A stretch of 64,000 nt of DNA from assembly GCA_025812035.1 (NCBI GenBank), contig GCA_025812035.1_4719.1. One strand, written 5' to 3'. The notes beneath the pieces were generated by a model that did no database searches, was not told the DNA's origin, and was given only the letters and a program-made list of their open reading frames with translations. Of this stretch, positions 6,924 through 59,736 are shown in pieces; the stretch's first letter is position 1; each line of letters starts with the position of its first letter. This stretch comes from a phage. The position numbers and the translations under genes were made by a program.

Positions 6924-6958
6924 CCTTCTCCCCAACCCGATGAGGGAAGGGGAGAAGG
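6924..6958. terminator. bidirectional hairpin between convergent genes
   Basis: Perfect 10-bp stem CCTTCTCCCC/GGGGAGAAGG around inner CCC-GATGA-GGG; A8 tract upstream and T-rich downstream on plus. Confidence 0.6.
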
Positions 6959-9891: not shown

Positions 9892-11688
9892 TCAATCGAT
9901 TATGTCACGATCGTTAATTTCTACAATTTCTTCATCGAATCGACCGACGTCTTTCTTCAAGCCTGCATTTGTTGCTGCAACGTCATTTGCAATTTGTGGG
10001 GTAACGATTAACCGACCACGCTCGTCGATAGGTGCGTACATACTGAACTTCTGACGTCCGGTTGGTTCGGAGTGTGGAAGATTCAGATAGCTCGCACAGA
10101 ACGGGATGGAACCACTAACCAAACGACTCTCGTCAGCCAACGCAGCACCGCCTGCGTTTTGGCTCTGGAGAACAACATGCGTGCTCACTTTGAACAGCAT
10201 GCAATCACCCGGTGACTGAATCGATGTTGCCACTTTCTCACGCTTATCACGATTGCTCTGGATATTGAGAATCGCTTCTGTTGCAACTTGATTTCGCAAC
10301 GCCTTCTGTACATCGCGATTGGTCATCTCTTTACGGTTGTTCTGTCGTTTACCACGTTCTGTGGTTTTAAGATGGAACCCCAGTTTAAAGATGCTCTTAC
10401 GCACATCCTCCATGACATATTCCAACACCATCAATTCCTTACCGAACATCGTCGTGGTATCAACACGACTCATTTCGATAGTAACATTGTCAATCAGATA
10501 CGCCATAAATTCGTAGAAGTCATCGCAAGGAATATTTTCCTGTTTGAACTTCTTCTGCTGAATTTCGTCGACGTAAAGATCAAGGCTATCGATGTGGTGG
10601 TTTACATCACGCAACAAACGCGCATCCGCGTTGTTGTTATTAAAGATAATCAAACCGAGTAATGTACGCCAATGGTCTGGCGCATTAGCGAACTCTTCAA
10701 CCGGATAGTCTTCCGGAAAACGATCGTAATAGCGGTCGATGAGATACAAGAACGCACCGACAAGGCCAAGAACAATACGTTCCGTGCCTCCACGTCTTAC
10801 AGCAATTTGAATATCAGGATGTTTATAACGTACAGCGTTAGCGCTACGGCTTTTACCGCTCTTACTAATACTAAAGCCTTTAGGAATAACCCCCATGGTG
10901 CGATAGATTACCCATTGGTCGCGCGGAAAATCGCGTTCAGCAAGATTCCGTCCGGTTACCGCTTCGACACCCGCGAAACGTCGGAAACATTCACCTACCC
11001 CGTACTTCGCAAAGAGATAGTGACCCAATGTGGTTACACTGGTGTGGTTGATGTTGTCACCGTTCACTTTACTTTGTTTGGTAAGATGATAGATTTGCGA
11101 CCAGGGTAACGATAGATAGTGACGATAATCGACACCGGTTGGAGTATCATTACTCAGGAACTGATACGGCGTACGTTTAACTGTGATTTTGTCACGCGGA
11201 AGCATGATGAACGCCATGTCTTTCGTGTAACTGATTACAGGGTCAGCGAGTACCGCACTGAGAATAAAGTTTGCACCACGTAGACGCATTTTACCACCCT
11301 GCCCTACTGCGGGTAATAGGAGAGGGTGTCGGATAATGCAGTAGTCCTTTCCTGGTTCACGACGGTCACCTGATTCCATCGCGCCATACCAGCGGAATTC
11401 TAACATCACCATAAACACATCGGACGGCGCAAGGTCAAAGGTCAGCTTACCGCTATCCTTCCCTTTGGTTTTCTTTCCTCCGCTTAAGTAGTGAAACTGT
11501 TCGCGGGCCACACAACGACGTAGGCCATGATACACCAGATCCTTAGGTAAACTATCTTTGCTGTTCCGCCAAAGACGATCAACATAGGACTCAACATCTT
11601 GCATCTTATCGACGACGATGTTGCGCGCTATCTTCTCGTTCATCTTCGGTGCAAGCCCAGCGACAGCTTTGCAGAATCTAGGATCCAT
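9892..11688 (-). CDS. hypothetical protein (~598 aa)
   Basis: ORF track 9892..11691; ATG at 11686-11688 preceded by AAAGGAG SD; no polymerase or terminase motifs recognised. Confidence 0.6.
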   Translation of the reverse strand: MDPRFCKAVAGLAPKMNEKIARNIVVDKMQDVESYVDRLWRNSKDSLPKDLVYHGLRRCVAREQFHYLSGGKKTKGKDSGKLTFDLAPSDVFMVMLEFRWYGAMESGDRREPGKDYCIIRHPLLLPAVGQGGKMRLRGANFILSAVLADPVISYTKDMAFIMLPRDKITVKRTPYQFLSNDTPTGVDYRHYLSLPWSQIYHLTKQSKVNGDNINHTSVTTLGHYLFAKYGVGECFRRFAGVEAVTGRNLAERDFPRDQWVIYRTMGVIPKGFSISKSGKSRSANAVRYKHPDIQIAVRRGGTERIVLGLVGAFLYLIDRYYDRFPEDYPVEEFANAPDHWRTLLGLIIFNNNNADARLLRDVNHHIDSLDLYVDEIQQKKFKQENIPCDDFYEFMAYLIDNVTIEMSRVDTTTMFGKELMVLEYVMEDVRKSIFKLGFHLKTTERGKRQNNRKEMTNRDVQKALRNQVATEAILNIQSNRDKREKVATSIQSPGDCMLFKVSTHVVLQSQNAGGAALADESRLVSGSIPFCASYLNLPHSEPTGRQKFSMYAPIDERGRLIVTPQIANDVAATNAGLKKDVGRFDEEIVEINDRDIID

Positions 11689-11727
11689 CACACACTCCTT
11701 TCAGAAAGTTGCTTAAGCAGATTAAAG

Positions 11728-13197
11728 TTACTTTTTCGATGAAGCTTTCTCAAGAATCTTGAAAAAGGTCATACCTATACCAACAACGGCCGCGGTTATA
11801 CTCGCAGCGGCTTTCCAGACATCGACGTTACGTTGACGTCGCGCTTCTTCCGCTTCGCGTTGTCTTTTTGCTTCATCATCACGACGGCGTAGCTCAGTTG
11901 TGAATTCATCGTGCTTACGTTTCGCGTCCTCGTCTCGGCGACGCATTTCAGCGATAAGCTCATCATGCTTACGTTTTGCCTCTTCATCACGACGTTTAAG
12001 TTCAGCTTGATGTTCTTCTCGTATTTGTTTACGAAGATCATCTTGACGTTTCATTTCGGCTTGGTGGTGTTCCATCCTACGTTCAGTATCGTCTTTAAGC
12101 TGTTTAACAATTTCCGCATGTTGCTTATTTTGTCGTTCCGCATCGGTTTTATACAATTCGTGTAATTGCTTTATTTCCGATGCGTGAGCGTCAGCCTGTC
12201 GTTTCATTTCGTTGGTATGATCGACCTGCAGTTGCTTTATTTCAGCCATCAGCCCTTTAAGGGTTTCTTCTGTTGACTTACGTTCATAGCTACGTTGGTC
12301 GAAATCATTTTTGTAGGCTTCTTTTTGGATGGGGTCGCGCCAATGCAATGCCGATTCACGTGTCGGAAAAACATTGTACTTCCACATCTCTTTTTCCAAA
12401 TCTTCGACCGGTACGAAGACGGAGTCATTATTCCCGAAGGTAACCAACATACCTGGCGCGCCTGCTCCATTCGTTGGTTTTATTTCGAACGCTTTTCCCA
12501 GAACGTTAACCCATAAGCTATACGGATTATGAAAGTCTGGTGGCGTCCAATGGATAGTGAGTTGCGTTCCGAGAATCCGGAAACCCTCTGTTTTTCCCGT
12601 CAAGCTTCGCGCACACGTTGCGATGTAGGGGTGATCAATCCCTTTCGTAACGTGGTCTGCGCTTTTGTATTCTCCTTTAACTTTTACGACTGCCACGTTG
12701 ATTTGCGCGACATAAATAGGTTGATTAAAGTTCAACGTGTTGAGGTCAATTTGGCATACTTCATCCAGCGTATCGTACCAGTCTTGCTGGTCTAATAGAC
12801 GCGGTATTTTCTCCGTGTTAACGATGCGACGGATATGCGGTTTCCTTATCGCGTAACCTGTGCCGTTTTTAACACGAAGTATATCCCGACGTCTACCCGC
12901 GTAGACGAAGTTTCTGAATGCACCATTCGCATTAGATACGTCATGGCTGTCAACTATTACAGGACTACGAAATTTTGAACGCCTTACGATCCTGAATGTA
13001 TTGCCGTCCTCAACCCTACCAGGAATGTACTGGAACATATTGTCGGAGGTGATAACCAACACGGTATGGTTGGATTCATTAATACACGCCCATCCTAATT
13101 CCAGGTCATATAACGGTTCAGCATAACCGTCAATGCGATATGCGTGCGTACCATCCCACGGTTCGAACGCGGTATCACATATTGGCATGGAGGGCAT
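11728..13197 (-). CDS. hypothetical protein with C-terminal charged coiled-coil repeats and C-terminal transmembrane anchor
   Basis: ORF track 11728..13203 (TTG); ATG at 13195-13197 with GGAGG SD; C-terminal ~150 aa are K/R/E/D-rich heptad-like repeats (ELKRRDEEAKRKHDE / RRRDEDAKRKHDE / RRRDDEAKRQRE) followed by hydrophobic AAASITAAVVGIGMTFFKIL and KK end. Confidence 0.6.
   Translation of the reverse strand: MPSMPICDTAFEPWDGTHAYRIDGYAEPLYDLELGWACINESNHTVLVITSDNMFQYIPGRVEDGNTFRIVRRSKFRSPVIVDSHDVSNANGAFRNFVYAGRRRDILRVKNGTGYAIRKPHIRRIVNTEKIPRLLDQQDWYDTLDEVCQIDLNTLNFNQPIYVAQINVAVVKVKGEYKSADHVTKGIDHPYIATCARSLTGKTEGFRILGTQLTIHWTPPDFHNPYSLWVNVLGKAFEIKPTNGAGAPGMLVTFGNNDSVFVPVEDLEKEMWKYNVFPTRESALHWRDPIQKEAYKNDFDQRSYERKSTEETLKGLMAEIKQLQVDHTNEMKRQADAHASEIKQLHELYKTDAERQNKQHAEIVKQLKDDTERRMEHHQAEMKRQDDLRKQIREEHQAELKRRDEEAKRKHDELIAEMRRRDEDAKRKHDEFTTELRRRDDEAKRQREAEEARRQRNVDVWKAAASITAAVVGIGMTFFKILEKASSKK
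11830..12010 (-). repeat. imperfect tandem DNA repeats (~54-63 bp) encoding the charged coiled-coil repeats
   Basis: Plus-strand units such as TCATCGTGCTTACGTTTCGCGTCCTCGTCTCGGCGACG / TCATCATGCTTACGTTTTGCCTCTTCATCACGACG; in-frame within gene 11728..13197. Confidence 0.5.
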
Positions 13198-13346
13198 CGT
13201 CAACCTCCATCAGATTGAAAACTATCACGCATAATGCATTTCCCTTTTCTTGTTCTTATCGAGCCGACAGCCGACGGTTTCAGCATCGTTCCTAGCGCGA
13301 GAACGACCTTACGTGTTGTCTATGCCTTATTCATCGCAGGCGTCTG

Positions 13347-13403
13347 TCACCTAGGTAATGTAAGCGTCAAATTTTTTCTATTTGCAACGATAAACAGCAT
13401 AGA
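13347..13403 (-). promoter_or_regulatory. conserved intergenic element, copy 1 (candidate promoter, partly diverged)
   Basis: Shares TCACCTAGGTAAT(G/A)TA and ACAGCATAGAA ends with the copies at 21507 and 59630; sits between a terminator hairpin and the next minus-strand gene. Confidence 0.35.
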
Positions 13404-13437
13404 AGCCTCCCCCAACCCTTGCGGGCTGAGGGAGGCT
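13404..13437 (-). terminator. hairpin terminator downstream of the capsid-candidate gene
   Basis: Stem AGCCTCCC/GGGAGGCT with inner CCC-TTGC-GGG; on minus strand followed by TTCTATGCTGTTTATCG. Confidence 0.55.
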
Positions 13438-18177: not shown

Positions 18178-18202
18178 ACGCAAAAAAAAAGAATGTACGG
18201 TT

Positions 18203-18234
18203 CCCTCCTCCAACCCGTAAGGGAAGGAGGAGGG
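18203..18234. terminator. bidirectional intrinsic terminator
   Basis: CCCTCCTCC-AA-CCC-GTAA-GGG-AA-GGAGGAGGG hairpin (GNRA-type loop); A9 tract on plus = U9 after the hairpin on minus; between convergent genes. Confidence 0.7.
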
Positions 18235-19609: not shown

Positions 19610-19683
19610 CGTTTTACCTTTCTATGTTAGGTGGGTTGCGGATAGAAGAATCAATGCATAGACTGATTTAAGTTTGTTAAGGT

Positions 19684-20586
19684 TTACTTAGTCTTCGAGT
19701 TACAAGGACTGACCTGTTGTTGTACTCGTTGAATTGTGTCGTAGTACGGGTTAGATTGGTTGAACATGTTGTTGTGTGGATGATAGCCGTATGGCGCATT
19801 TTGCCTTGTTGATGAGAAACCTTGTTGAGAAGGACGATTTGAATTAACCGCGAGTACGTAGTAAACCAAATTTTGACGGTCGAACGTTCCTTCGTTTTTG
19901 AAGGTGTCGGCGTAGGTGCTTATCGCTGGAGCGAGTCTATCACCATCGGCGGTAATAATTGTACCGTCTGGGTAAACTTCACGAACGACGCACCATGTTC
20001 CGATAAGAACGTCTTTGGGTGGCGTATTGCCGTATCCGGTTGTAACGGTAAGGTAAGTATCGAACCCTTCAGAACAACAAGGATGACGATAGATAGGTCC
20101 TGTCATTTCCGTTCTATCGGTATCATCGCATTTCTCTATTGAGAGCGATGATGTGTCGGTTTTGAAATTGTCAAATTCTTTCTTTAAGTCGATTACAGGT
20201 TCTTTCGTATAGTACTTCTTGATTGCTTTGACGTAAAGATCAGGAACGGTTGTCAGCATTCCGTTATACCTGATTCTCAGGTTTTCGAGTAATCCAAAGA
20301 TACTCGCGCATGCTTGTTCGCGAGGTTTTGTAAGATAAGAGATCCCCCCAGGAACGCTGGGATCTTTGAGAAAGAAGATTGCGTTATTGTCGTTGTGTGG
20401 TGCATTGAAGAAAACGATTGATTCGATATATACGGAGCATAGGCTGTCGTTGGCGTCGTCAGATAACACCCAGATGCACTCATCGGTCGTCTTGTTTAAA
20501 AGTTCTGTTTTGTCCACCAAACGTTGTTTCATTGCGAGGAAATGTGCCTGTTGTTCAGCGGATAATTCACGATAAATAGTGGTCAT
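19684..20586 (-). CDS. hypothetical protein, paralog A of a tandem pair (~300 aa)
   Basis: ORF track 19684..20664; ATG 20584-20586 with AAGGAG SD; shares IYRHPCCSEGFDTYLTVTTGY...REVYPDGTI core with the next gene. Confidence 0.6.
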   Translation of the reverse strand: MTTIYRELSAEQQAHFLAMKQRLVDKTELLNKTTDECIWVLSDDANDSLCSVYIESIVFFNAPHNDNNAIFFLKDPSVPGGISYLTKPREQACASIFGLLENLRIRYNGMLTTVPDLYVKAIKKYYTKEPVIDLKKEFDNFKTDTSSLSIEKCDDTDRTEMTGPIYRHPCCSEGFDTYLTVTTGYGNTPPKDVLIGTWCVVREVYPDGTIITADGDRLAPAISTYADTFKNEGTFDRQNLVYYVLAVNSNRPSQQGFSSTRQNAPYGYHPHNNMFNQSNPYYDTIQRVQQQVSPCNSKTK

Positions 20587-20671
20587 ACTCGGCTCCTTGA
20601 TTACGATAAGGATGATTGCGGTTTTGTGATGCTGGTAGGGCCCTAAACAAAGGAGCCCTACCAATATTGGG

Positions 20672-21451
20672 TTACTCAGGATCGGCGTAGAAATGATGGG
20701 GATAGCCGGAGTACGATCCCGCGTTACCGGCTATGGATTTTTTCTGGGAATCGACGACGAGCGCATAGAACTGTCGGGAATTTGTTAGCGTTGAGAAATA
20801 AGAGGAAAGGACTTTTTCATTCAACGCATCGCAAGGTAGACAGGTGCGACCGCAAAACGTCACAATACGACCGTCAGGATAGATCTCACGAATCATTCTC
20901 CATTCGCCGATATCAACCGGCGATGGCGCTGCTACAGCACCCGTTATTGTTAAGTAACGATCGTACGTGGTGTGGCATTCTGGATGAATGTAGATCGGTT
21001 GGGTATCAGTGCTTTCGTTTTCTACCTGATCTTTGCTTACGTATACCTCAAGATAAATCGTTGGTAGTCCGGTTAGAACGCCGGTATCGCGACGTTTTTT
21101 GGTAATCCGGGGACGGATATTATCGAGCACACCTTCCAGTTTTTCTGCGATTTCGTCAGCCGGTAATATATACCCGTATGTTGGTTCTAGATCATCATCG
21201 TGACTGAATAAGATACGACAGTCGTTGTTATTTTCTGGTGCTTCAGGCGGAAAGATGATGGCTTGAACCGTATGACGTTCTGCGATATAAAATCCTTCAG
21301 GTCCCTCAGTTTTGGTAAGTGTAAAGGACCAGGATGAATGATCTTCAAGTGATGTGCCTTCCAGGAAAAAGTTCGTCCGGATTGGTGCGTCCCATTTTGT
21401 GATCATATTGGCGTGACCGATAGCGCCTAACTTTTGATAAATATCTGTCAT
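20672..21451 (-). CDS. hypothetical protein, paralog B of a tandem pair (~260 aa)
   Basis: ORF track 20672..21547; ATG 21449-21451 with GAGGA SD; core IYIHPECHTTYDRYLTITG...REIYPDGRI matches the upstream gene. Confidence 0.6.
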   Translation of the reverse strand: MTDIYQKLGAIGHANMITKWDAPIRTNFFLEGTSLEDHSSWSFTLTKTEGPEGFYIAERHTVQAIIFPPEAPENNNDCRILFSHDDDLEPTYGYILPADEIAEKLEGVLDNIRPRITKKRRDTGVLTGLPTIYLEVYVSKDQVENESTDTQPIYIHPECHTTYDRYLTITGAVAAPSPVDIGEWRMIREIYPDGRIVTFCGRTCLPCDALNEKVLSSYFSTLTNSRQFYALVVDSQKKSIAGNAGSYSGYPHHFYADPE

Positions 21452-21506
21452 GATTGTATCCTCGGTTGTTAAGAGAAATTTACAGCGATAACAGTAACCG
21501 TTGTTA

Positions 21507-21565
21507 TCACCTAGGTAATATAGTCGTGAAATAAACTGGATTAACAAGAATAAGACAGCATAGAA
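21507..21565 (-). promoter_or_regulatory. conserved intergenic element, copy 2 (candidate promoter)
   Basis: ~85% identical over ~59 nt to the copy at 59630-59690 (plus strand TCACCTAGGTAATATAGTCGTGAAATAAACTGGATTAACAAGAATAAGACAGCATAGAA); on minus reads …TTGTTAATCCAGTTTATTTCACGACTATATTACCTAGGTGA, upstream of the gene starting at 21451. Confidence 0.4.
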
Positions 21566-21597
21566 CCCTCTCCCAACCCATCAGGGAAGGGAGAGGG
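21566..21597 (-). terminator. hairpin terminator of the CCCTCC family
   Basis: CCCTCTCCC…GGGAGAGGG with inner CCC-ATCA-GGG; followed on minus by TTCTATGCTGTCTTATTC. Confidence 0.55.
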
Positions 21598-43844: not shown

Positions 43845-46800
43845 TTATCTTACGTTAGTACTATTCTGCTGTTCGCTGAACCAACCATAAACCTTGAGAT
43901 CGGTACCGTATTTCAGTGCGATATACGCATTCAGTGCTGCACAGAACAAAGACGCGAATGCCCATACCAGCGAAGGATCGACATCTTCCGTTACCGCCAC
44001 CAGGGTAGCCTCTGGTTCCCATGACGGAGAACTGTCTGTAAACGTCGTGAACCATGCCCGACGTTGTTCTTCAGTGGTAAAGTCGCTATGTGGCTCCAAC
44101 GCTTCTTTTGCCAAACGTCGATATTCGGTCATATGAATCGCGAGAGCCGCTGAGCTATCATATTTGCATTCATAGTTCGGATCAACAGCACAACAGAGTT
44201 CTGCGGAATCCAACAAAGCAAGCGCTTGTTTGATGCTGTCGGTGGTGCCTGCACTATAAAGCTCGATAGACTGCGAAAGCTTTTCACAGAACGCATTTAA
44301 CGCGGCAGGATCGGATACCTGAAGGTCAAGACCTAATGTCCACGGATAGTTACTGAACACACCCGTAAACTGCGGCATAACACCCAACAGATGTTGTCCG
44401 ATTACAGCGCGGTTATAAGTAGCCCGATTATAGACTTGAAACGCGGCCTCCAATGCTTGGTTATAATGACGACGAAGTTCGTCACGCGTGTTGCGGAATC
44501 TGTTCGCCGCGAGACTCGTAGCTGCGACGCTACAAACATCGTAACCAGTGGACGAGAGCACAACGTCGTTAAGATCGAACGCTTCCTGTTTCAACGATCC
44601 ATTAACAGCTACCGCTTCGCTGTTCGCTTTATCGACAACCGTACTCAACGCGTTGATATAACGTTTAGCGCGGACTTCCAACCATTGTGCAATACCGAGA
44701 ATATCTACCGCGGCTTTAGCAAGATCGCGTGCGTTCACGATTTCGTTCTTCAAGGCACCCAACCCTTTATTCTCAGGCGAAGAGGCTTGTTGACGAATCA
44801 TGCTGTTTAACATGGTAAGCAGATTATCCAACTCATGTCCGCTGACCTTGTTACGCGCATCGGTAATCGGCCCTTGCAGGAATTTACGGCAACCATCGTT
44901 GTATCGAATCAGTTTATCCACATCGATCGACTCGTTAGCGGATTCCTTGAACTGATTCTTCAATTCTTCACGGTAATCATGAATTTCACTTGCAAGATTG
45001 TCGACAGTGATACCATCATGTTCGAGAAGAACTTTATTGAAGTTACCTTTCTCGAATGCAAGAGCAAGACCTTCGCGAATCTTAGCGAGTTTATCCTGAT
45101 CGAGTTCACGACCGTTTGATAACTCTTTCACTTCCGAGCTGATTAATGCTGCAACGTTACCCAGATTGTCGGTAACCCCTTTGAATGTCCCCGACCAAAT
45201 CGTTCCCGCTTCAGCATATTTCGCAATGGTCTGAATACCGACGGTATGCAATGACGCTAAACGTTTCTTCGTGCCTTCGGTAAGCAGTGCGTCTTTAGCT
45301 CGCGTAAGCTGGCTGTTATTAGCTTCCGCTTGCTGAATCGCTGCTTTCGCATTTCCATTACGCCAGCTCTTAACCAACCAATCAACCAGACGTTTTAGGA
45401 TGTTGACGGTATATTCCATCGTCCGCCGTAACGTCTCCCACGCGCTTTCAGCGGTATAAATGCCGTACCCTTCCATCGTCAACGCTTTCAAGCTTGTTTG
45501 ACGTGCCAGCCATTCTACCGTTGCAGAGCAAACGTTTACTAATGCTTCCAGGTAGTTGTAATAGACGTCTGTTGCCGACGTTTCGTTGAACTTTGAATGC
45601 AGATAGAACTGATCGTAAAGTTCGTCGTCATCACCGAAGGCATCATAGTTCCACAGTTCTGTATCACAACCTGTGCCGCAGAAGACGTCAGCTGTCGTAA
45701 ACTCTTTAAGCGCTTTAGCGGCGTCATTTGTCAGGAATTTACCTGTTTCAACTACATCGTCGACATTAAGTTTGGGGAGTTCGTCGGTGACCGGCTCTTC
45801 CAACATCAGCATATTGAAGAATGTGCTATACTTGTATCCGAGCCATTTTGGATAGCTGCTTTCAGGGATCGTAGACAGCGGCTTGATTTTCTTGGCTTCA
45901 GCCAACGTGTCTTTTGCGACCTGATATTGGTTTTCCCCAGCCTTGACGCGACGTAATGCTTTTTCTTCCAACTGCTTGAGTTTGGTATGTCGTGCTTGTG
46001 CTGGAGCTTCAACAAGTTTTTGTACGGACCGCATTGCTGATATCGCTTCTTTTAATACGATCATCGGCATACGAACTTTACCGTCGTCGAAACTAAGAGC
46101 GCGAGCGACACGTTTACTTACGACAGGCTTATCATGGATATTTCGTTCCACCCACGATTTGTTTGCGTAAGTTTGAGCGATCTGCTGTTGGATATTTTCA
46201 AGGTATTTCCAGCCGTTGGAAGCTTTGTTATCCAGAAGCGGATTCGGTCCCTTCTTATCGAAAAGTTTCAGAATCGGACCAAAGAAACCTTCCTGTACGA
46301 GTTCGATACGCGTGTATCCGTCAGCCGCTTCGATTTCTTCTTGGGTTTTGTCCCAGAGCTGTTCACTACGGACAGCAGTAGCTGTTTCAGATACCGACAT
46401 AACAAGCTCGGCAACAACTTCAGCGCAGGTCAGTACGGTACGCACGCATTGCAGTAGCATACGCTGGTAAACGATACGTGCGTTTTGTAGACGTGCGATA
46501 ACCGCTAAATAACCGATATTGTCAAGACGTTCGTCGGCTTGAGCAGAGTCAACACGTTCTATCAGTTGTTTCACCAACGCGGCTGTTTCCGGATAATCGT
46601 TCACGACGTCACGCATAATTCGTGATGCGAAAACCGCGGTACCTAAAACGTTAAGAAGTGTTTTACCGTCCCATTCTTTTGGTGTCGCTACCGATTCGGT
46701 AGGGATGAGATTTCCCGCTTGGTCGAAGTACGGCATAAGGACATTGATATCCGTAGACGGTACTGCGGTGACTGCGTTGTACTCTTCATCCGCACCATCG

Positions 46801-47450
46801 TCGCCGGATGGTTGTATAGCGAGTGCCTGTTCAAGGATTTTGCGGTCAACAGCATAAAGCGCTGATAGGGCCTGTGTTACCGCAACCAGATCAACAACCG
46901 GTGACCAGAGCTGTGCGAGTTTATCCTTGTATTTCTGTACAGCAATAACGAGGTCTTCTTTTACGTCAGGATGATTGATTAAACCACCCAACGCTTCATG
47001 GACTGCAGAAAAACGTTCAGAATGCGCTTGAGTTAATGCGACAAAATCGTCAACGTACGATGCATTTTCTTCAAGGCGTGCAAGTTCCTGCTCCAGGAGA
47101 TCTTTTACTTGCGTGGCGGATGCGTTTCTCAACTGTTCCCCGATAATCGCGATGGCTTTATCGACAACACGACAAGCTTCATTGAACCCGGTCGTTGATG
47201 GTAACTCGGTCCATAATGCCAGCGGCTTACCTTCCATTGCGTCAGGAAGGGAGTACGACAGCATTGTTAGTTGCTGACGCGATACCTGTTTATCACGATG
47301 TAGCGTTTCTTTCAACGCCAGAAGCTCATCAAGACCCACACTGCTGGGGATCGTGGGATGTGATACAGCGTTGATGTTTTCTGCTAATGACTCAAGAACC
47401 AATAAACCATTTTCAGCGGTAGAGAAACCTGCTTTAAGGTATTTGTTCAT
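43845..47450 (-). CDS. hypothetical very large protein (1201 aa), probably virion-associated
   Basis: ORF track; GGAG SD; start immediately follows a 12-bp-stem hairpin. Confidence 0.6.
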   Translation of the reverse strand: MNKYLKAGFSTAENGLLVLESLAENINAVSHPTIPSSVGLDELLALKETLHRDKQVSRQQLTMLSYSLPDAMEGKPLALWTELPSTTGFNEACRVVDKAIAIIGEQLRNASATQVKDLLEQELARLEENASYVDDFVALTQAHSERFSAVHEALGGLINHPDVKEDLVIAVQKYKDKLAQLWSPVVDLVAVTQALSALYAVDRKILEQALAIQPSGDDGADEEYNAVTAVPSTDINVLMPYFDQAGNLIPTESVATPKEWDGKTLLNVLGTAVFASRIMRDVVNDYPETAALVKQLIERVDSAQADERLDNIGYLAVIARLQNARIVYQRMLLQCVRTVLTCAEVVAELVMSVSETATAVRSEQLWDKTQEEIEAADGYTRIELVQEGFFGPILKLFDKKGPNPLLDNKASNGWKYLENIQQQIAQTYANKSWVERNIHDKPVVSKRVARALSFDDGKVRMPMIVLKEAISAMRSVQKLVEAPAQARHTKLKQLEEKALRRVKAGENQYQVAKDTLAEAKKIKPLSTIPESSYPKWLGYKYSTFFNMLMLEEPVTDELPKLNVDDVVETGKFLTNDAAKALKEFTTADVFCGTGCDTELWNYDAFGDDDELYDQFYLHSKFNETSATDVYYNYLEALVNVCSATVEWLARQTSLKALTMEGYGIYTAESAWETLRRTMEYTVNILKRLVDWLVKSWRNGNAKAAIQQAEANNSQLTRAKDALLTEGTKKRLASLHTVGIQTIAKYAEAGTIWSGTFKGVTDNLGNVAALISSEVKELSNGRELDQDKLAKIREGLALAFEKGNFNKVLLEHDGITVDNLASEIHDYREELKNQFKESANESIDVDKLIRYNDGCRKFLQGPITDARNKVSGHELDNLLTMLNSMIRQQASSPENKGLGALKNEIVNARDLAKAAVDILGIAQWLEVRAKRYINALSTVVDKANSEAVAVNGSLKQEAFDLNDVVLSSTGYDVCSVAATSLAANRFRNTRDELRRHYNQALEAAFQVYNRATYNRAVIGQHLLGVMPQFTGVFSNYPWTLGLDLQVSDPAALNAFCEKLSQSIELYSAGTTDSIKQALALLDSAELCCAVDPNYECKYDSSAALAIHMTEYRRLAKEALEPHSDFTTEEQRRAWFTTFTDSSPSWEPEATLVAVTEDVDPSLVWAFASLFCAALNAYIALKYGTDLKVYGWFSEQQNSTNVR

Positions 47451-47531: not shown

Positions 47532-50336
47532 TTACGCTAATTTACCGAAACCGGCTTTCTGTAGTTTCTCGTTGATCAGTTTTGCTTCAGCGAAAACATA
47601 ATCACGATATGCGGTAACTAACCCATCCACCCGTGAACGCAAGGCTTCTTCGAAGCTATACCACGCAGCGATTTCACGAATCTGAGCGTTGATATAATCA
47701 ACGGTTGAGCGAAGCTCGGTTGCATTTTCTTGCGGGATGGCTTTCACCTGGCGAGCAACGTCATTTAAACGACGGAACTGTGTTTCGATTTCTTTAAACT
47801 TACTGTCAGCAAGTTTGCTGAATTCGTCACCGGAACGAGTAAATAACAGATAGCTGTTGCCATCAAGTGCGGTCGCTAACTGCTGAAGTACATTGGTGTC
47901 CGGATACACAGGAGTACCGCTTTGCAGTACTTTCTCACCGAATTCCGCGAAGTCCTTCGGCGGTAAGTGTGCAGACGTTGTCAATTCGTTGAAACGGAAA
48001 GTCAGCGAACTATCATACAACATCCGGTACGCTTCCATACCCTGTTTCATGGTACCAGCCAGGTTAGCCAGACGCGGAGCAATTTCACCCTCTTTAGCGC
48101 GCTTCTGGTCTTCTAACGCCCCTTCCAGTTCTTTACACTGGTCGTTCAGATACACGATACGATCGGGACGCAGACGACGCATCTCACGAAGAATAGTATC
48201 CAGCTTACCTTCCTGGAAATAACCTAGCGTTAAAGACGTACACGCTTGTTGAAGACGATCGAACACTGGTAAGGTTACCATCTCTTTACGGATACCATCA
48301 ACAATCGCAGAAACAGCCGAAAGTTTCTGTTCTGTGGTTAATGGAACGTCAGAGACCGACTTGCTGGGCGCACCAACAACGTTACGCATTGCGTCGGTAT
48401 CCTCGGTTTTATCAACCTCTTTACGAACATTCTCGTCGGGAACATAAACGTTCGCATTACGTTTTGCCTGTTTGATGGCATCGCTGGCCGCTTTTTCGGT
48501 GGCCGCTACGCTATCGGCACGTTTCTTCAAGAGTTCAATAATCCAAAGCAACAGACGACGAATCGCAGTGTAGGCTGTCGTGATGATGACGCCGATAACA
48601 GCCATCTTCATGATACCGAACGATTCCATGGTCGGCTCTAACGCCTGGTCAGGCATATACCGTTCACGCAGCTCCAGATAGATCTGCTCATCCGGTTTGC
48701 TGATCTCACCACGATGCGAAGTCCGATAGATGGCTTCGTCAATCTCAACAAGATCTTTACGTGCTTGACGGTCTGTTTCGGTCAAATAAGCGCAGCCGGA
48801 TACGTCGTCTTCAAAACTTTCGAACTTAAAGAAATCGACAACCATCTTGGCAAGCGCCTCTTTCTTAGCAGGATCGAGCGTCTTCGCATCTTCTTTTTGC
48901 TTATCCATTTTTTCCTTGAATTTCTCTTTGTAGTCATTCAAGGGTTTTACCGCTCTTGCCCTCAACGCGTTATAGATAGTTTTCCAACTTTCTTCGCGTT
49001 CTAAGATAAGGAAGTAGTTTTTGAGTTCGAAAGCACGGTAACGTGCAACGAGCTGTTCTACCTGAGCATGAGCGAGTTGTACATCCATCAACCAGCGGGA
49101 CAATGCTGAAACCAAACGACTATAAGCAAGCAGCGTTTGATATGTCAGCTTCATGTGTTTCTCGTAGAGTTCAATATCTCCGCCCCGGATATCAGCTGTC
49201 GGGTTCATCTCCTTAGTTGCTTTGAAGACTTGTTCAGCTTCATTCAACACTTGCTCGAACTTGACTTCATTGAACGCGTTGAATGGTTCGGCCAGTTCAT
49301 CCATCTGTTCGTGAAGCTCGCGAACCCAAGCTTCTTTGTGATTACGAATGACCGCATCAGCGTGGAGCACGGTTTGATGTTTCTGTACCCATTCTTCGAC
49401 GATATCTGCCGCTGCAACAACACCCATGTTGTCGGAAATCAACGGAATAACATTGGAGAGCATACCAGCACACGCTGGTGTTTTCCAATGATCGTTTAAC
49501 GCGTTACGGAACGCAATAATGTCCGTCATAGACGTAGTGATATCGAGGAACGTGTTACCGTTACGACTCATGCTTGCGATATTTGCAGCAAACGTCTTTT
49601 GCTGATCTACAACGAATGGAATCAATAGCATCAACCATTCAGCAACGCATTTTGCTTTGTCTTTCAGGTTTTTGTCGGCTATTTCTTTGAGATTGATTGC
49701 GCTACCATAACCCGCAAGTTCGTTATATACGTCGTTCAAGGTCATCTGCTTATCCAGCATTTCTCTGAAACGCGGATAATCTTCCCCTAACGCATCGATG
49801 ACATCTTGGATAACATCGTCAGTTGTGGCGATAAATTTCTTCGCGTCGACTTTAGATTTCCAGACGTGTCGTACCGCTTTCTTGATTCCTTCAAAGATAA
49901 ACGCCCAGATACGCTTGATGAGTTCCCAGACTTTCTTCGCACCATCGACAAACAGTTTAGAGACTTTGGCAACGAATCCTTCCTGCACCAACTCAACGCC
50001 GTTACGTGATGGAATTTCGGTGAAGAAAGCATCCGGCAGTTGTTTCGGGAACGCATCACCAAGACGCATACGCAATTCGGGTACATCGGCACGAGAAATA
50101 CCACGCGTCGTTAGCTGCTCGTGAAGACGAACGTTTTCTTCACCAGAGGCTACGAATTCGTTAACGTCAAATGAAACCAGTTCTTGATCTTCGGTGGTAA
50201 CGACGCTTGAACCATCACTGGTTTGGATGTCTTCGTCAGGGAATGCCATGAGCATACCGTGACGCATTTCAACCACCCCGTAATCGGTTGCTAAACCGAA
50301 TTCGTTGTGATCGGGGGTAATAACTGGGATACTCAT
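47532..50336 (-). CDS. large virion-type protein (934 aa) with two copies of the EGF/ESF + amphipathic-helix motif
   Basis: ORF track; motifs VQEGFVAKVSKLFVDGAKKVWELIKRIWAFIFEGIKK and MESFGIMKMAVIGVIITTAYTAIRRLLLWIIELLKK resemble the paralog family. Confidence 0.6.
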   Translation of the reverse strand: MSIPVITPDHNEFGLATDYGVVEMRHGMLMAFPDEDIQTSDGSSVVTTEDQELVSFDVNEFVASGEENVRLHEQLTTRGISRADVPELRMRLGDAFPKQLPDAFFTEIPSRNGVELVQEGFVAKVSKLFVDGAKKVWELIKRIWAFIFEGIKKAVRHVWKSKVDAKKFIATTDDVIQDVIDALGEDYPRFREMLDKQMTLNDVYNELAGYGSAINLKEIADKNLKDKAKCVAEWLMLLIPFVVDQQKTFAANIASMSRNGNTFLDITTSMTDIIAFRNALNDHWKTPACAGMLSNVIPLISDNMGVVAAADIVEEWVQKHQTVLHADAVIRNHKEAWVRELHEQMDELAEPFNAFNEVKFEQVLNEAEQVFKATKEMNPTADIRGGDIELYEKHMKLTYQTLLAYSRLVSALSRWLMDVQLAHAQVEQLVARYRAFELKNYFLILEREESWKTIYNALRARAVKPLNDYKEKFKEKMDKQKEDAKTLDPAKKEALAKMVVDFFKFESFEDDVSGCAYLTETDRQARKDLVEIDEAIYRTSHRGEISKPDEQIYLELRERYMPDQALEPTMESFGIMKMAVIGVIITTAYTAIRRLLLWIIELLKKRADSVAATEKAASDAIKQAKRNANVYVPDENVRKEVDKTEDTDAMRNVVGAPSKSVSDVPLTTEQKLSAVSAIVDGIRKEMVTLPVFDRLQQACTSLTLGYFQEGKLDTILREMRRLRPDRIVYLNDQCKELEGALEDQKRAKEGEIAPRLANLAGTMKQGMEAYRMLYDSSLTFRFNELTTSAHLPPKDFAEFGEKVLQSGTPVYPDTNVLQQLATALDGNSYLLFTRSGDEFSKLADSKFKEIETQFRRLNDVARQVKAIPQENATELRSTVDYINAQIREIAAWYSFEEALRSRVDGLVTAYRDYVFAEAKLINEKLQKAGFGKLA

Positions 50337-52338: not shown

Positions 52339-54090
52339 ATGAGCGAACAAGAACGAAAACCTAAGAAGAAACTGCTCGGTATTCAATGTCGACACATCAG
52401 TTATAACGAAGCGAACGATGGCAGTAAGAACGATCTCATGATTGCAAAAGAGATCATGTTCTTTGATGATAATACGCAGGCAACGAACCTTCGATTCTTC
52501 GAGAATTACAAACGTCCATTTTGGGTGACGGTAGAGAGTAAACGTAAGAACAAATATAAAAAGGAAAGCGAGAAGCTCTCGCATGTACGTCGCTATGATG
52601 TCCGTCAAAGTGAACTGGTCGATAAAATCAGTTCGGTGCTTTATAAAAGACGTGCTGATGATAACACCCGCTTACAACAGCTCGCACGGAGTCCATACCT
52701 CTATGGAACGGACGTTAGCGCTAGCTGTTATTTAAAAACCCAATACAATACAAAATGGCCGGAATACGCCGATAAATTACCTGCCACCATCGCATGTTTC
52801 GATATCGAAACCGACGTTGTTCATGGGCACGGTAAGATCGTTTGTATGTCTATTACAATGGGCTACAATGCGATACTTTGCTATACCAAGGACTTCGTTG
52901 GTCATATTCCGAATGCGATCGAGAAAACCCACGAGAAGATTCGATATTACCTGGCCGAACGTCTGAACACCAAAGAGGATCCTCACGCGTTCGAAAAATA
53001 TCATTACGATGTTCGAATCGTAGAAAGCCCAGCACAAGCGGTCATCCAATGCATGCAGAAGGTTCACGAATGGCAGCCGGATTATCTCCTTGGCTGGAAT
53101 ATCGCGTTCGATATTCCACGTATGCTCCAGGCGCTGAACGAGGAAGGGTATCGTCCCGAGGATGTTTTCTCCGATCCTCGCGTACCCCCTAAGTATCGCA
53201 TTGCTCGCTGGGTACCACCGAAGACCGACAAGGTATCTGCTTCAGGTCGTAAAACCAACCTTACCCTTGAGCAGACCTGGCCGATGTTTTATACGATGGC
53301 TACATACCAGGTTATGGATGCGATGTGTGGTTATAAGTTCGTTCGTTTAGGAAGACCGGATGAAGGACGTTATTCACTCGATGCGGTGTTAGAGCGTAAT
53401 AAATGTCATACGAAACTAAAAGCGATTCCTGGTACAGAAGGGTTCACGGAGCTCGCCTGGCACGAAGAGATGCAAACGAACCATCAAATCGACTACGGCG
53501 TATATAACCTTTGGGATAACCAAGGTATTGAGGCATTGGACCAGAAAACAAAAGACTATTCGATGACCATCCCTATTCGTTTAGCGGCGTCGGATTTGAA
53601 AGATTTCAGTTCCAACCCTAAACGTATCTGTGATAAACTTTTCTTCGTTTATCTTAACCGTGGGGAAGTCATGGGATGCACCGCCGACGACATGACCCAG
53701 GAAGAAGATAAATGGGTTATCTCACGAGCAGGACATATCGTCACATTACCATGCGATCTCATGGCAGACAACGGCATACATCTCTTCTGGGATATGCCGA
53801 ACTTGAGAAGTTATATCCGTCTATTCGTTGCAGACCTTGACATAAGCAGTTCATACCCGAATGGGCAGATCCTGCTCAATCTATCCAGGGCGTGTGTTTT
53901 TCGTGAGCTCTCACGTATTGAGGGCGTCTCTGACTATCAATTCAGGAAGCTAGGTATCAACTTTATTACCGGAGGTAAAACGAACGCGGTAGACTTCTGT
54001 AGAATCGTTTATAAAGCACCATCGATGTTCGAACTCTTAGAACATTTCGATGCGACGCGTCCGAAAGAGGAAGCGCGAACCATCGAATGA
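52339..54090 (+). CDS. family B DNA polymerase, N-terminal part (3'-5' exonuclease domain plus palm motif A); motifs B and C not encoded here
   Basis: ORF track; Exo I ACFDIETD, Exo II LGWNIAFDIPRM, Exo III YGVYNLWD, motif A-like DLDISSSYPNG (cf. DxxSLYPS); ORF ends ~70 aa after motif A with no YGDTDS-type motif; followed by a hairpin and T-rich tract. Confidence 0.6.
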   Translation: MSEQERKPKKKLLGIQCRHISYNEANDGSKNDLMIAKEIMFFDDNTQATNLRFFENYKRPFWVTVESKRKNKYKKESEKLSHVRRYDVRQSELVDKISSVLYKRRADDNTRLQQLARSPYLYGTDVSASCYLKTQYNTKWPEYADKLPATIACFDIETDVVHGHGKIVCMSITMGYNAILCYTKDFVGHIPNAIEKTHEKIRYYLAERLNTKEDPHAFEKYHYDVRIVESPAQAVIQCMQKVHEWQPDYLLGWNIAFDIPRMLQALNEEGYRPEDVFSDPRVPPKYRIARWVPPKTDKVSASGRKTNLTLEQTWPMFYTMATYQVMDAMCGYKFVRLGRPDEGRYSLDAVLERNKCHTKLKAIPGTEGFTELAWHEEMQTNHQIDYGVYNLWDNQGIEALDQKTKDYSMTIPIRLAASDLKDFSSNPKRICDKLFFVYLNRGEVMGCTADDMTQEEDKWVISRAGHIVTLPCDLMADNGIHLFWDMPNLRSYIRLFVADLDISSSYPNGQILLNLSRACVFRELSRIEGVSDYQFRKLGINFITGGKTNAVDFCRIVYKAPSMFELLEHFDATRPKEEARTIE

Positions 54091-54138: not shown

Positions 54139-54170
54139 CCCCTCCCCCTGGCGGAAGCCGGAGGGAGGGG
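54139..54170. terminator. hairpin terminator after the polymerase gene
   Basis: CCCCTCCC…CGG-AAG-CCG…GGGAGGGG imperfect nested stem, then TGGAGGTTTTATGTGTTTTTAATT on plus; convergent with the first gene of the small-paralog array. Confidence 0.6.
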
Positions 54171-54188
54171 TGGAGGTTTTATGTGTTT

Positions 54189-54638
54189 TTAATTATTATT
54201 GGTGGGGTTATCGTCCGGTTTATATTCAATGCCGTAGGCGACGTAACGGTCTGTTGTATGGACGACAAGCGAGATAGGGAAATCATAATGCATAGTTTTG
54301 TCTCGAACGAGCTGAGTAAAGAGATCCATATAACGTATTAAGTCTTCACTGGTGTAATCAGAAGGGAAGAAGACATCGATGGTTATTGAATCTTCATAGA
54401 GGCGTACGACCAACTTATCCAGAAGGTCGGCATATTGGTTAGCCGGGGTGACGTCCATCTGACAGATGCCACGATCTCCTTCGTCTCGCGATACCCACAT
54501 CGTGGTATCCTGTAATGAGGTTTCAAGGATCTCGAAAATACATTTTGCTGTAAGTCTTAGTTTATTTGTTACGTCATGGTTAGGTGAATAATGGTCACGG
54601 ATGTTTTTCACTGCGTCTTTGATAGAGAAAGTCATCAT
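54189..54638 (-). CDS. small acidic protein, member 1 of tandem paralog array (149 aa)
   Basis: ORF track; C-terminal signature HYDFPISLVVHTTDRYVAYGIEYKPDDNP shared with neighbours. Confidence 0.6.
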   Translation of the reverse strand: MMTFSIKDAVKNIRDHYSPNHDVTNKLRLTAKCIFEILETSLQDTTMWVSRDEGDRGICQMDVTPANQYADLLDKLVVRLYEDSITIDVFFPSDYTSEDLIRYMDLFTQLVRDKTMHYDFPISLVVHTTDRYVAYGIEYKPDDNPTNNN

Positions 54639-54648
54639 TGATGCTCCT

Positions 54649-55158
54649 TCAAATGAAATTAATACGTGCGGCTGTCGAAACGAGTTCGCTTGTAAAGCAA
54701 TGCTTACCGTCGGGATTTACCGTGTGGGTAAGTTTACAAACCTTAGCGGCAGGGTTAGCGCCGATGACAAGGACGGTCGTCATATCGAACAGTTCCACAC
54801 GTTGAAGAAATGCCGTATCGGCTACCTTCTGTAAACCGGTTGCTTCAAAATCGATGTGGTCGTTAAGAGGCACCAATTGGATTTCAATACGTTCTTTGAA
54901 AAGTTTAAACGTTACTGAAAACCGATGAGGTTCGGCATTAAGCCATAAAGGTCCGCGTTGGAAGTGCTGATATGCTTCATTCGCGGTGTTCTCGAAAACC
55001 CAGCAGTCGTGGACAAGAGAAGCCTCTTGTAACGATGATTCCAGGTAGTCAAATACCTTGTTTATCGTTTTCTCAAGCATAGGTGCTAGTGAACCAGGGT
55101 ATCCAGCAAATGCTGCTTCGGCAATCGATTTTATTGATACGATGTTGTTCTGACTCAT
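54649..55158 (-). CDS. small protein, member 2 of tandem paralog array (~169 aa)
   Basis: ORF track 54649..55185; ATG 55156-55158 with AAGGAA SD; N-terminal helix LEKTINKVFDYLESSL and FDMTTVLVIG…VNPDG weak family signature. Confidence 0.5.
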   Translation of the reverse strand: MSQNNIVSIKSIAEAAFAGYPGSLAPMLEKTINKVFDYLESSLQEASLVHDCWVFENTANEAYQHFQRGPLWLNAEPHRFSVTFKLFKERIEIQLVPLNDHIDFEATGLQKVADTAFLQRVELFDMTTVLVIGANPAAKVCKLTHTVNPDGKHCFTSELVSTAARINFI

Positions 55159-55162
55159 TTCT

Positions 55163-55615
55163 TTATTCCTTGTTGGCTTCTTCAATGTACTTGGTGTCGT
55201 AAGACAAATGCTGAATTAATTTTCTAGGCTCGATGAAAATACGACACGTGATAAACACATCAGGGTTGTATTGTTCCACGCAACGTCCGAAGGCTTGTTT
55301 TGCGGCGTGACGCATCAACACTAATTCCCGATCGTTCATCTCATCATCAAATTCGATATGTATCGTGATTTTATCGGGAAATAAATAGATAGAGTAATCG
55401 CTACCAATACCGTCGTCGTCAAAGCGATAATCGTTGTGGTAATGGTGAAGTTTACCTTCGTGTACCGTCTGGTACCACCCGACGATACTATCAAGACCCA
55501 TACCCAGGCGTCCGAATGCCTGATTAATAATATCCTCGACGACGGATGCGGGGGTGGGACCATTGAACAATCTATCCAGACGTTTTTTCATCGATTTGTC
55601 TGTTTTCACATTCAT
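55163..55615 (-). CDS. small protein, member 3 of tandem paralog array (~150 aa)
   Basis: ORF track 55163..55666; ATG 55613-55615 with AGGAA SD avoids the hairpin at ~55646-55681; C-terminal FITCRIFIEP…. Confidence 0.5.
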   Translation of the reverse strand: MNVKTDKSMKKRLDRLFNGPTPASVVEDIINQAFGRLGMGLDSIVGWYQTVHEGKLHHYHNDYRFDDDGIGSDYSIYLFPDKITIHIEFDDEMNDRELVLMRHAAKQAFGRCVEQYNPDVFITCRIFIEPRKLIQHLSYDTKYIEEANKE

Positions 55616-55645
55616 CGATTCTGTTCCTGTTATAGTCAGTATAAA

Positions 55646-55681
55646 CCCTCCTTCCCTAGCCATCAAGGCCGGGGAAGGGGG
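55646..55681 (-). terminator. imperfect hairpin inside the small-paralog array
   Basis: CCCTCCTTCCC…GGGGAAGGGGG with mismatches; lies between members 3 and 4. Confidence 0.4.
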
Positions 55682-55693
55682 TATGTGCGTTAT

Positions 55694-56101
55694 TTATGCT
55701 TCGTTGTCAACTAAAGGTGCTGTATGTTTCTTACCGTCGATGTGCCAAATGAGACACGCTGGATAGAGGTTAACATCTAGAGAGCAGGGGAGGCCATATT
55801 TCTCTTCCAGTTCGTAAAGACGTTCAGCGAGCTGCTTCCGTCCATCATCATCGTTTTGCAATGCATGATGGCCGAATCGTTGCTGGTCGTTCTTTACATA
55901 CGCCTCGAAAAGTATATGTTGTTGAAAAACGATGATTCTTACACCTTCAAGTATGTCGGTGTCGAGCATGCGAGAAAAACTCATACATGCCTCTGATGCC
56001 GAAGACGAGTTTTCCTCTTTAACAATATCAATCATCGCGGTGATACGTGGCTGATCGATGTTGTCGTTAACCGCTTTAACGATGGAATCTACAATACTCA
56101 T
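55694..56101 (-). CDS. small protein, member 4 of tandem paralog array (135 aa)
   Basis: ORF track; N-terminal helix SIVDSIVKAVNDNI; weak C-terminal signature LPCSLDVNLYP. Confidence 0.5.
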   Translation of the reverse strand: MSIVDSIVKAVNDNIDQPRITAMIDIVKEENSSSASEACMSFSRMLDTDILEGVRIIVFQQHILFEAYVKNDQQRFGHHALQNDDDGRKQLAERLYELEEKYGLPCSLDVNLYPACLIWHIDGKKHTAPLVDNEA

Positions 56102-59136: not shown

Positions 59137-59562
59137 TCAATTCAGTGATGCATACAACGCATAACGACTGTAGATCTCAACCGCTGGCCCGTTATGCGTT
59201 AACAGACCATCTCGGTTGTAATACTGGAAAAAGGAATAGCGTTTGTCGAAGTGATAAACGAAAGCAATGTCTTTACCGTTAAGACCCGTGATGCGTGGTC
59301 TGTTTTTATCTAGCAATGCTTTGACTTTTAACAGTGTTGCCGCACGTGCTTTAACATTAGGGATTAATCCATCACAGTCGATATAAACCGTGTAACCTGT
59401 TTCAGATGTTGCGACGGTTGTATTGCGATTGACGCGGAAGATTTTTGTTTTGTATGTATTATCTTCAAGGATTGGGTTTTGTTTTTCGTATTTTCGTTTA
59501 TGCAGAAATCCTACAACGGTAATATAGTTAGCGGTAATATGTCCGGTTATAGCCTGTAACAT
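59137..59562 (-). CDS. hypothetical protein (141 aa)
   Basis: ORF track; followed on the minus strand by a hairpin with UUCG loop and a U10 tract. Confidence 0.55.
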   Translation of the reverse strand: MLQAITGHITANYITVVGFLHKRKYEKQNPILEDNTYKTKIFRVNRNTTVATSETGYTVYIDCDGLIPNVKARAATLLKVKALLDKNRPRITGLNGKDIAFVYHFDKRYSFFQYYNRDGLLTHNGPAVEIYSRYALYASLN

Positions 59563-59629
59563 TTTGACATCCTCTTATATTGGATTGATTACAGTTATCT
59601 TAAATAGGCGATAAGATATCTTGCTCTTA

Positions 59630-59690
59630 TCACCTTAGTAATATAGCCGTGAAATAAATTGTGTTAACAAGAAATAAAACAGCATAGAAC
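59630..59690 (-). promoter_or_regulatory. conserved intergenic element, copy 3 (candidate promoter)
   Basis: Plus strand TCACCTTAGTAATATAGCCGTGAAATAAATTGTGTTAACAAGAAATAAAACAGCATAGAA; between a hairpin and the gene starting at 59562. Confidence 0.4.
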
Positions 59691-59730
59691 CCTCCTCCCC
59701 CATCCTTCAAGAGGACGGTGGGAAGAGGGA
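59690..59730 (-). terminator. imperfect nested hairpin of the CCCTCC family
   Basis: CCCTCCTCC…CCATCCT-TCAAG-AGGACGG…GGAAGAGGG; followed on minus by TTCTATGCTGTTTTATTTC. Confidence 0.45.
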
Positions 59731-59736
59731 GAGAGA

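Follow-up and report, generated by a model that had tools for sequence, protein, structure and literature searches.

Three copies of an intergenic element in a 64,000-nucleotide stretch of phage DNA (contig GCA_025812035.1_4719.1; this whole stretch is called the window below) are very probably early promoters used by the virion RNA polymerase, vRNAP, in a Goslar-like chimallivirus, each joined to the terminator of the preceding late transcription unit. They are a lineage-specific addition to the known phiKZ-type early promoter family, the rule itself having already been stated for phiKZ-like phages. We infer that the polymerase is vRNAP from the reading that the authors of a Goslar ChmA-knockdown study gave to the arrest of infection they observed. 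An earlier note on this DNA had proposed a candidate promoter for a phage-encoded polymerase, and this proposal is supported both by a core and geometry shared with phages phiKZ and AR9 and by the boundaries of early-expressed blocks in Goslar.

The window shows about 92-94% identity to Escherichia phage Goslar (NC_048170) and is collinear with Goslar positions 29919-91077, the long collinear segments being 89-94% identical. Goslar is a phiKZ-like nucleus-forming jumbo phage, and in such phages an injected vRNAP transcribes the early genes while a non-virion polymerase (nvRNAP) transcribes the middle and late genes (PMC7598289, PMC13282480). The Goslar record lists chimallin, PhuZ and seven RNA-polymerase beta-type fragments, one of which (gp078) has its orthologue at window positions 61018-62319; by this identity and annotation, the genome encodes both virion and non-virion multisubunit RNA polymerases.

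Probable terminator and promoter parts of the intergenic element

The three copies reported in the earlier note were all recovered, at 13347-13404, 21507-21565 and 59630-59689 on the minus strand. The 17-nt left end, TCACCTAGGTAATATAG, searched with up to three mismatches, matched only at 13347, 21507 and 59630 in the window (0.06 matches expected by chance), and the 11-nt right end, ACAGCATAGAA, matched exactly at 13394, 21555 and 59679. A 46-nt sequence-only model, run over the window with filters off, returned exactly three matches with E values of 4e-11 to 2e-13 and scores of 38.8-46 bits (46 bits for copy 1 at 21507, 42 bits for copy 2 at 59630 and 38.8 bits for copy 3 at 13347), the next best match scoring 6 bits. 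Copies 1 and 2 differed at 8 of 60 aligned positions when counted by hand, and this identity of about 87% agrees with the value of about 85% over some 60 nt given previously. Copy 3 had been described as sharing both ends; it does so, and the sharing goes further, to the -10 block, the TGA and a variant upstream half.

Every copy lies between a CCCTCC-type hairpin and the start of a minus-strand gene with a Shine-Dalgarno sequence, and the proposed placement from hairpin to gene start, in the sense of minus-strand transcription, was thus seen at all three. A longer duplication including coding sequence, which would have undermined the original proposal, was looked for and is absent: the longest match between copies is 74 nt and wholly intergenic, and this objection falls away because the similarity is confined to intergenic DNA.

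The element did not hold as a single unit of about 60 bp, since its first 11 nt form the tail of a terminator and the remaining 38 nt or so the promoter. Judged by sequence, these first 11 nt, TTCTATGCTGT, belong to the preceding putative hairpin terminator and not to the promoter. The assignment was made because hairpins without a promoter carry the tail, because TATG is enriched behind Goslar hairpins, and because a matching terminator motif has been published for phiKZ. The same tail follows promoterless hairpins in the window at 32819 (TGATTATGCTGT), 35523 (GTTTATGCCGT) and 43804 (TTATGTACTT). In Goslar, TATG occurs within 7 nt of the stem in 44 of 84 hairpin strand-readings, compared with 2.3% at random positions, and 10 of the 13 Goslar promoters described below lack a hairpin or tail of this kind immediately upstream. 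The conserved terminator motif of phiKZ and 201phi2-1 is BCCYCCCCHWWDGGGRRGGBYTTATKYYGT (PMC10914365, PMC11512511). The window terminators share its arrangement, in which (Y)TTATGYYGT comes after a C/T-rich versus G/A-rich hairpin, the 5' 11 nt of the element supplying the YTTATKYYGT part, whereas stems in the window and in Goslar are longer (9-12 bp) with a CCCGTAAGGG-type centre. The terminator parts are as follows.

21555..21565, minus strand: copy 1 tail TTCTATGCTGT, fitting the phiKZ motif ...YTTATKYYGT
21566..21597, minus strand: copy 1 hairpin CCCTCTCCC/GGGAGAGGG, putative end of the upstream late unit (Goslar gp048 orthologue)
59679..59689, minus strand: copy 2 tail TTCTATGCTGT
59690..59735, minus strand: copy 2 long C/T- versus G/A-rich hairpin, putative end of the upstream late unit (gp076 orthologue)
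13394..13404, minus strand: copy 3 tail TTCTATGCTGT
13405..13436, minus strand: copy 3 hairpin, putative end of the major-head-protein unit (gp041 orthologue)

Along the minus strand, each copy opens with the GC-rich hairpin and its tail TTCTATGCTGT; past some 10 nt of spacer stands TTAAYNCA, which 5-6 nt separate from (T)TTCACG, and 2 nt further on comes TAYATTAC and, after another 5 nt, TGA. Alignment of 15 copies showed that the conserved columns fall into three blocks about 10 nt apart, including an invariant TA.ATTAC, and that an invariant TG stands 5 nt past TAYATTAC. Applying the spacing between start and consensus in AR9 and phiKZ gives, as predicted transcription start (+1), the G within the invariant TGA, which stands six bases past TAYATTAC. 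Relative to this predicted +1, TAYATTAC would occupy -14 to -7, TTTCACG -23 to -17 and TTAAYNCA -36 to -29.

21508..21544, minus strand: copy 1 promoter proper, from -36 up to the predicted +1, with the G at 21508 as predicted start
Copy 1 blocks, minus strand: TTAATCCA at 21537-21544; TTTCACG; -10 block TATATTAC at 21515-21522; TGA at 21507-21509
59631..59667, minus strand: copy 2 promoter proper, -10 block TATATTAC at 59638-59645, predicted start G at 59631
13348..13384, minus strand: copy 3 promoter proper, of an A-rich sub-class, AATAGAAAAAATTTGACGCTTACATTACCTAGGTGA, -10 block TACATTAC at 13355-13362, predicted start G at 13348
21487..21508, minus strand: copy 1 stem-loop from the predicted +1, GATAACA-ACGGTTAC-TGTTATC
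59610..59631, minus strand: copy 2 stem-loop at the predicted +1, GATAAGA-GCAAGATA-TCTTATC

The upstream half occurs in two sub-classes, TTAAYNCA...TTTCACGR in copies 1 and 2 and an A-rich form, WTWGAAAAAAATTTSASG, in copy 3 and ahead of Goslar chmA, gp214 and gp200. A parallel split was observed in phiKZ, between TTCAAAC...TTTAAACAG and AAAAAAWWTTRAGAT.

The stem-loops of copies 1 and 2 are related by one compensatory change (C:G to G:C), and copy 3 has none at +1. Among the 13 Goslar sites, six have a stem-loop that begins exactly at the predicted +1, against a background of 8.7% (P = 4e-4). Such a structure may act as a 5'-terminal hairpin that protects early mRNAs. A search of Rfam found no family within the window.

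Probable promoter sites and early expression in Goslar

A genome-wide motif search, suggested in the earlier note and run here with a sequence model, gave three sites in the window and 13 in Goslar. The Goslar genome holds TAYATTAC at 23 places, and a common context of about 40 nt surrounds it at 13 of them, all on the minus strand. A family model seeded with 12 Goslar and the three window copies was searched against the window and the whole Goslar genome (301 kb) and recovered only those sites, with the seeds at 32-46 bits and a weak variant before gp225 at 12 bits. All 13 Goslar and all three window sites are intergenic and co-oriented with the next gene, and the Goslar sites lie on the coding strand 25-152 nt ahead of the start codon. 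One of the 13 belongs to the Goslar shell gene, gp246.

An exact motif scan of 2.9 million viral contigs in IMG/VR matched only seven jumbo contigs (183-238 kb), one of which is Goslar. Four distant jumbo contigs from the same collection (214-229 kb) carry a variant site, TTTCACGTCTATATTACTTGGGTGA, behind another type of hairpin, AACCTACCGGG...CCCGGTAGGTT; here too a short inverted repeat comes after the site. In a close relative, IMGVR_UViG_3300011560_000001, one more terminator-promoter cassette is present, its spacer shortened, and Goslar lacks this cassette.

Per-gene RNA-seq values for control and ChmA-knockdown infections are available for Goslar (Supplementary Table 2, bioRxiv 10.1101/2023.09.20.558163). 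Knockdown holds infection at the early vesicle stage, and its authors concluded that only vRNAP transcribes in this state (10.1101/2023.09.20.558163). These are gene-level counts from Goslar as the reference phage, not from the phage of the window, and under knockdown its genes fell into two clean groups, with log2 fold changes of about -1.3 to +1.4 (expressed) and about -2.5 to -8.8 (late). The first gene past each of the 13 sites had a log2 fold change of +0.5 to +1.4, and all nine early-expressed regions of Goslar start at a site; in Goslar the sites therefore stand ahead of genes that are transcribed early and independently of nvRNAP. The nine regions are listed below by the position of the site, together with the log2 fold changes that bracket the orthologues of the window copies.

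2560, minus strand: early region gp004-001
15060, minus strand: early region gp021-014
43259, minus strand, copy 3 orthologue: early region gp040-037 (upstream gp041 -4.0, downstream gp040 +0.9)
49725, minus strand, copy 1 orthologue: early region gp047-044 (upstream gp048 -3.3, downstream gp047/gp046 +0.8/+1.2)
86698, minus strand, copy 2 orthologue: early region gp075-070 (upstream gp076 -4.5, downstream gp075 +1.05)
142793, minus strand: early region gp159-094
187632, minus strand: early region gp225 through gp162
201937, minus strand: early region gp214-216
226688, minus strand: early region gp200-201

The genes on the upstream side of the three orthologous sites behaved as late genes in the knockdown (gp048-050 about -3; gp076 -4.5 to -6.1; gp041 about -4). 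The four remaining sites are internal to early regions, at gp105, gp175, gp182 and gp246, and the ratio steps up clearly at gp105, gp175 and gp246; at gp182 it rises little, since the value of gp183 lies near +1 already. The early signal also rises around gp183/gp184, where no motif is present. The words promoter and motif do not occur in 10.1101/2023.09.20.558163, no promoter consensus for Goslar was found in the searchable literature, recent reviews included, and a full-text literature search for TATATTAC returned unrelated papers only.

Comparison with known promoters and alternative readings

The early promoters of phiKZ were reportedly described by Ceyssens in 2014. As characterized, phiKZ-type early promoters are AT-rich elements used by vRNAP, centred near -10 and conserved at -10, -20 and -30 (PMC7598289; PMC11512511), and the 15 aligned copies likewise combine an AT-rich core, some 10 nt long, with conserved positions near -20 and -30. 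The early consensus of AR9 is AAATATATATTAT-(6N)-G+1, and transcription in phiKZ and phiR1-37 also starts 6 nt past the consensus (PMC5312081). The window copies have the sequence and geometry of these defined early promoters (TATATTAC/T, 6 nt, G), and the comparison with phiKZ-like consensus sequences proposed in the earlier note gave agreement in both respects for the core TAYATTAC-N5-TGA.

For this comparison, phiKZ sequences were read from phiKZ intergenic DNA and not from published promoter tables. The same core and spacing were found before PHIKZ005 (GTATATTACAAAGGTGA / ...AACAGTATATTACAAAGGTGA), before PHIKZ041.3 (...GGCTATATTACAAACATGA) and before the shell gene PHIKZ054 (TTATATTACTAAATTGA / ...AAAAAAATTTGAGATTTATATTACTAAATTGA), and several phiKZ sites come after a hairpin and a CTTTATG tail, as the window copies do. 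When the Goslar-derived model was run on phiKZ positions 1-50 kb, its best match was the PHIKZ054 promoter (E 5.6e-5, 38 positions), and PHIKZ054 has a primary start site with the early motif (PMC8244752). Promoters of the two lineages have in common the core TATATTAC, the TG(A) five bases on and the AT-rich blocks near -20 and -30; in both they are intergenic, co-oriented and often placed right behind a hairpin with a TTTATG tail (see also PMC10914365), and in both phiKZ and Goslar one copy stands ahead of the nuclear-shell gene. They differ in the flanks, which contain G/C in the Goslar lineage (TTTCACGR ahead of the core and CYTNNG behind it) and read AAACAG or AAGAT in phiKZ, in the tolerance of Y at core position 3 in the Goslar lineage (TACATTAC), unlike phiKZ, and in the number of sites (13 in Goslar, 28-32 in phiKZ). 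Starts are predicted in the Goslar lineage, whereas those of phiKZ are mapped.

Bacillus phage AR9 also has the core TATATTAY six bases before a G, at a promoter used by an injected multisubunit RNA polymerase in chloramphenicol-independent transcription (PMC5312081). In contrast to the Goslar lineage, AR9 is not nucleus-forming, has uracil-containing DNA and has a purely A/T upstream part without TTTCACG and TTAAYNCA.

The virion RNA polymerase of phage N4 is an injected, single-subunit enzyme that transcribes early genes and whose recognition signal is a DNA hairpin located upstream of the start. N4 and the element studied here are alike in having promoters of an injected virion polymerase that drive early genes; they differ in that conservation here resides in a linear sequence, with the inverted repeat on the downstream side of +1.

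A second reading, offered as an alternative in the earlier note, makes the element the target of a regulator from phage or host (an operator or activator site) and not the promoter itself; we consider it very improbable. The element is long (about 38 nt) and its three blocks, being spaced one helical turn apart, face one side of the helix, an arrangement to which a DNA-binding protein could be suited; since no sigma-like vRNAP subunit was identified in the literature searched, an accessory factor can be imagined. Against this, every early block of Goslar starts at a site and no other common motif was seen at the boundaries, the position of the core relative to mapped starts is that of the AR9 and phiKZ early promoters, and a factor that bound the blocks and recruited vRNAP would still make the element a promoter. 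A regulator site is not needed to account for the data, and extra factors acting on the -20 and -30 blocks are possible alongside an early promoter.

Use of the element by nvRNAP and not by vRNAP, as a middle or late promoter, is judged very improbable; it was considered with reference to the tail, which holds TATG, the late-promoter consensus of phiKZ with G as +1, and to the downstream genes, which are still expressed at 30 min of normal infection. TATG is present in every tail, and four bases are too short a motif to be judged as a late promoter. Under the pre-nucleus arrest, however, the downstream genes remain at or above control while late genes drop 10- to 100-fold, and the TACT motif of phiKZ middle promoters at -22 is absent here. 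The published oligonucleotide of the phiKZ late promoter p119L shows no hairpin in the 31 nt upstream of TATG, and for this reason a hairpin followed by TATG is not a late-promoter signature; as a late promoter, the combination was left as a reading of low probability.

A host sigma-70 promoter, at which E. coli RNA polymerase would initiate with TATATT as its -10 box, was rejected as extremely unlikely: TATATT agrees with TATAAT at 5 of 6 positions and TTGACG is present in copy 3, but a sigma-70 consensus scan found nothing at the elements (no site at 13347-13404 or 21507-21565), in keeping with the misfit to a -35/-10 layout claimed previously, and gave 8 sigma-70-type sites in the region compared with 14 in shuffled sequence; in the alignment TATATT lacks a -35 hexamer at a distance of 16-18 nt upstream; sigma-70 contacts do not match the positions that are invariant (the C that follows TTA, the TG five bases on and the TTTCACG beside the core); the same core is found in phages of Pseudomonas and Bacillus, making the motif common to phages of three unrelated hosts; and rifampicin does not affect phiKZ-type infection (PMC13282480).

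Proposed early units, cargo genes and likely transcript ends

Under the preferred reading of the copies as vRNAP early promoters, the GC-rich hairpin and tail TTCTATGCTGT would end the upstream late transcription unit, and vRNAP, injected with the DNA, would recognise the three-block promoter of about 38 nt that begins some 10 nt past the tail. Transcription would start at the G of TGA (21508, 59631 and 13348, minus strand) and cross 4-6 small, mostly uncharacterised early genes, and the early transcripts would end at a hairpin with a T-run, near 18203 for the unit from 21508, near 54139 for that from 59631 and near 6927 for that from 13348. The genes and probable 3' ends concerned are given below.

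20672..21451, minus strand: first gene of copy 1, a 259-aa ORFan that Goslar lacks, with a 57-nt leader and GAGGA as ribosome-binding site
59137..59562, minus strand: first gene of copy 2, 141 aa, Goslar gp075 orthologue, 69-nt leader
11728..13197, minus strand: first gene of copy 3, gp040 orthologue, ATG at 13197 after GGAGG, 151-nt leader
9892-11691: polymerase-like gene (gp039 orthologue, phrog_2943), next after the gp040 orthologue
6927..6955, minus strand: likely 3' end of the copy 3 early unit, hairpin with T8 17 nt further
18182..18234, minus strand: likely 3' end of the copy 1 early unit, hairpin at 18203-18234 with T9 (18182-18190) 12 nt further
54139..54170, minus strand: likely 3' end of the copy 2 early unit, hairpin followed by TTTTCTTTTTT; Goslar gp070 is the last early gene there

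The leader of copy 3 (13198-13348) is unusually long; ahead of the GGAGG-ATG it contains inverted repeats and a pair of very short ORFs. The Goslar record gives gp040 a later start than that of its window orthologue. Searches of the downstream genes against Pfam, PHROGs, NCBIfam and PADLOC found nothing besides the polymerase PHROG for the gp039 orthologue.

Homology to Goslar stops at the start codon behind copy 1, where the window (19668-21446) holds 1779 bp and Goslar 82 bp with a 25-codon ORF. The window segment encodes two paralogous ORFans, the 259-aa product (20675-21451) and one of about 300 aa (19687-20586), with 27% identity between them (E 1e-22); neither had a match in Pfam, PHROGs, NCBIfam or PADLOC, or by tblastn against 50,697 phage records. 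The Goslar gp047 annotation (49584-49772; window about 21450-21560) starts at an ATG inside the terminator tail and spans the promoter, and for these two reasons gp047 is probably mis-annotated, the plausible ORF being that of 25 codons from 49661 behind GAGGA. Further differences from Goslar were observed at window positions of about 53835-53853, 45481-47151 and 54180-57916: the region of the NUMOD1/HNH endonuclease gene gp069 (Goslar 81186-82966) is absent from the window, the gp064 orthologue has 1201 aa compared with 930 aa in Goslar, with a divergent segment, and small early genes of the gp070-073 region are partly replaced.

Arbiol et al. are said to have described in 2010 the PeSL cassettes of T4-type phages, in which an early promoter and a stem-loop flank variable genes. 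The promoters of T4 PeSL cassettes are of the sigma-70 type. The junctions described here are similar in that a terminator stem-loop is followed immediately by an early promoter and is repeated in intergenic regions, and in that the cargo right behind copy 1 differs between close relatives, with the homology break at the start codon. This one cargo swap and the 77-87% similarity of copies 1 and 2 suggest that the terminator-promoter cassettes may have a role in recombination.

Two kinds of terminator seem to be present. Hairpins with a run of at least six T 11-17 nt further on made up 7 of the 84 Goslar readings, compared with a background of 0.3% (positions 70, 11186, 36849, 48107, 146609, 165465 and 200233), and each stands directly 3' of the final gene in an early block or, in the one internal case, after gp182. 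Read density past the gp182 T-run hairpin dropped about five-fold in the vRNAP-only state, to about 0.18 of that of the upstream gene, compared with about 0.9 under normal infection. The hairpins that carry the TTATGYYGT tail stand after late genes; inside early blocks they barely lower read density in the vRNAP-only state (hand-computed median density ratio for nine such hairpins of about 0.8 in control and about 0.9 in knockdown). It is possible, if doubtful, that the junction is a hand-over between two polymerases with different stop signals. If so, chimalliviruses would have polymerase-specific terminators, and the non-virion enzyme would take the TATG tail as a signal to stop or to restart. 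The terminator-promoter cassette may, in addition, be a portable unit for swapping early accessory genes.

In summary, the 13 sites account for every early-expressed block in the published Goslar RNA-seq and form an apparently complete early-promoter map for the lineage of Goslar, an E. coli model for nucleus-forming phages. The promoter is compact and host-independent, and as such of use for engineering. The map marks the genes that are made before the phage nucleus exists, and the lineage-specific ORFans right behind the promoter are natural candidates for host-takeover or anti-defence functions.
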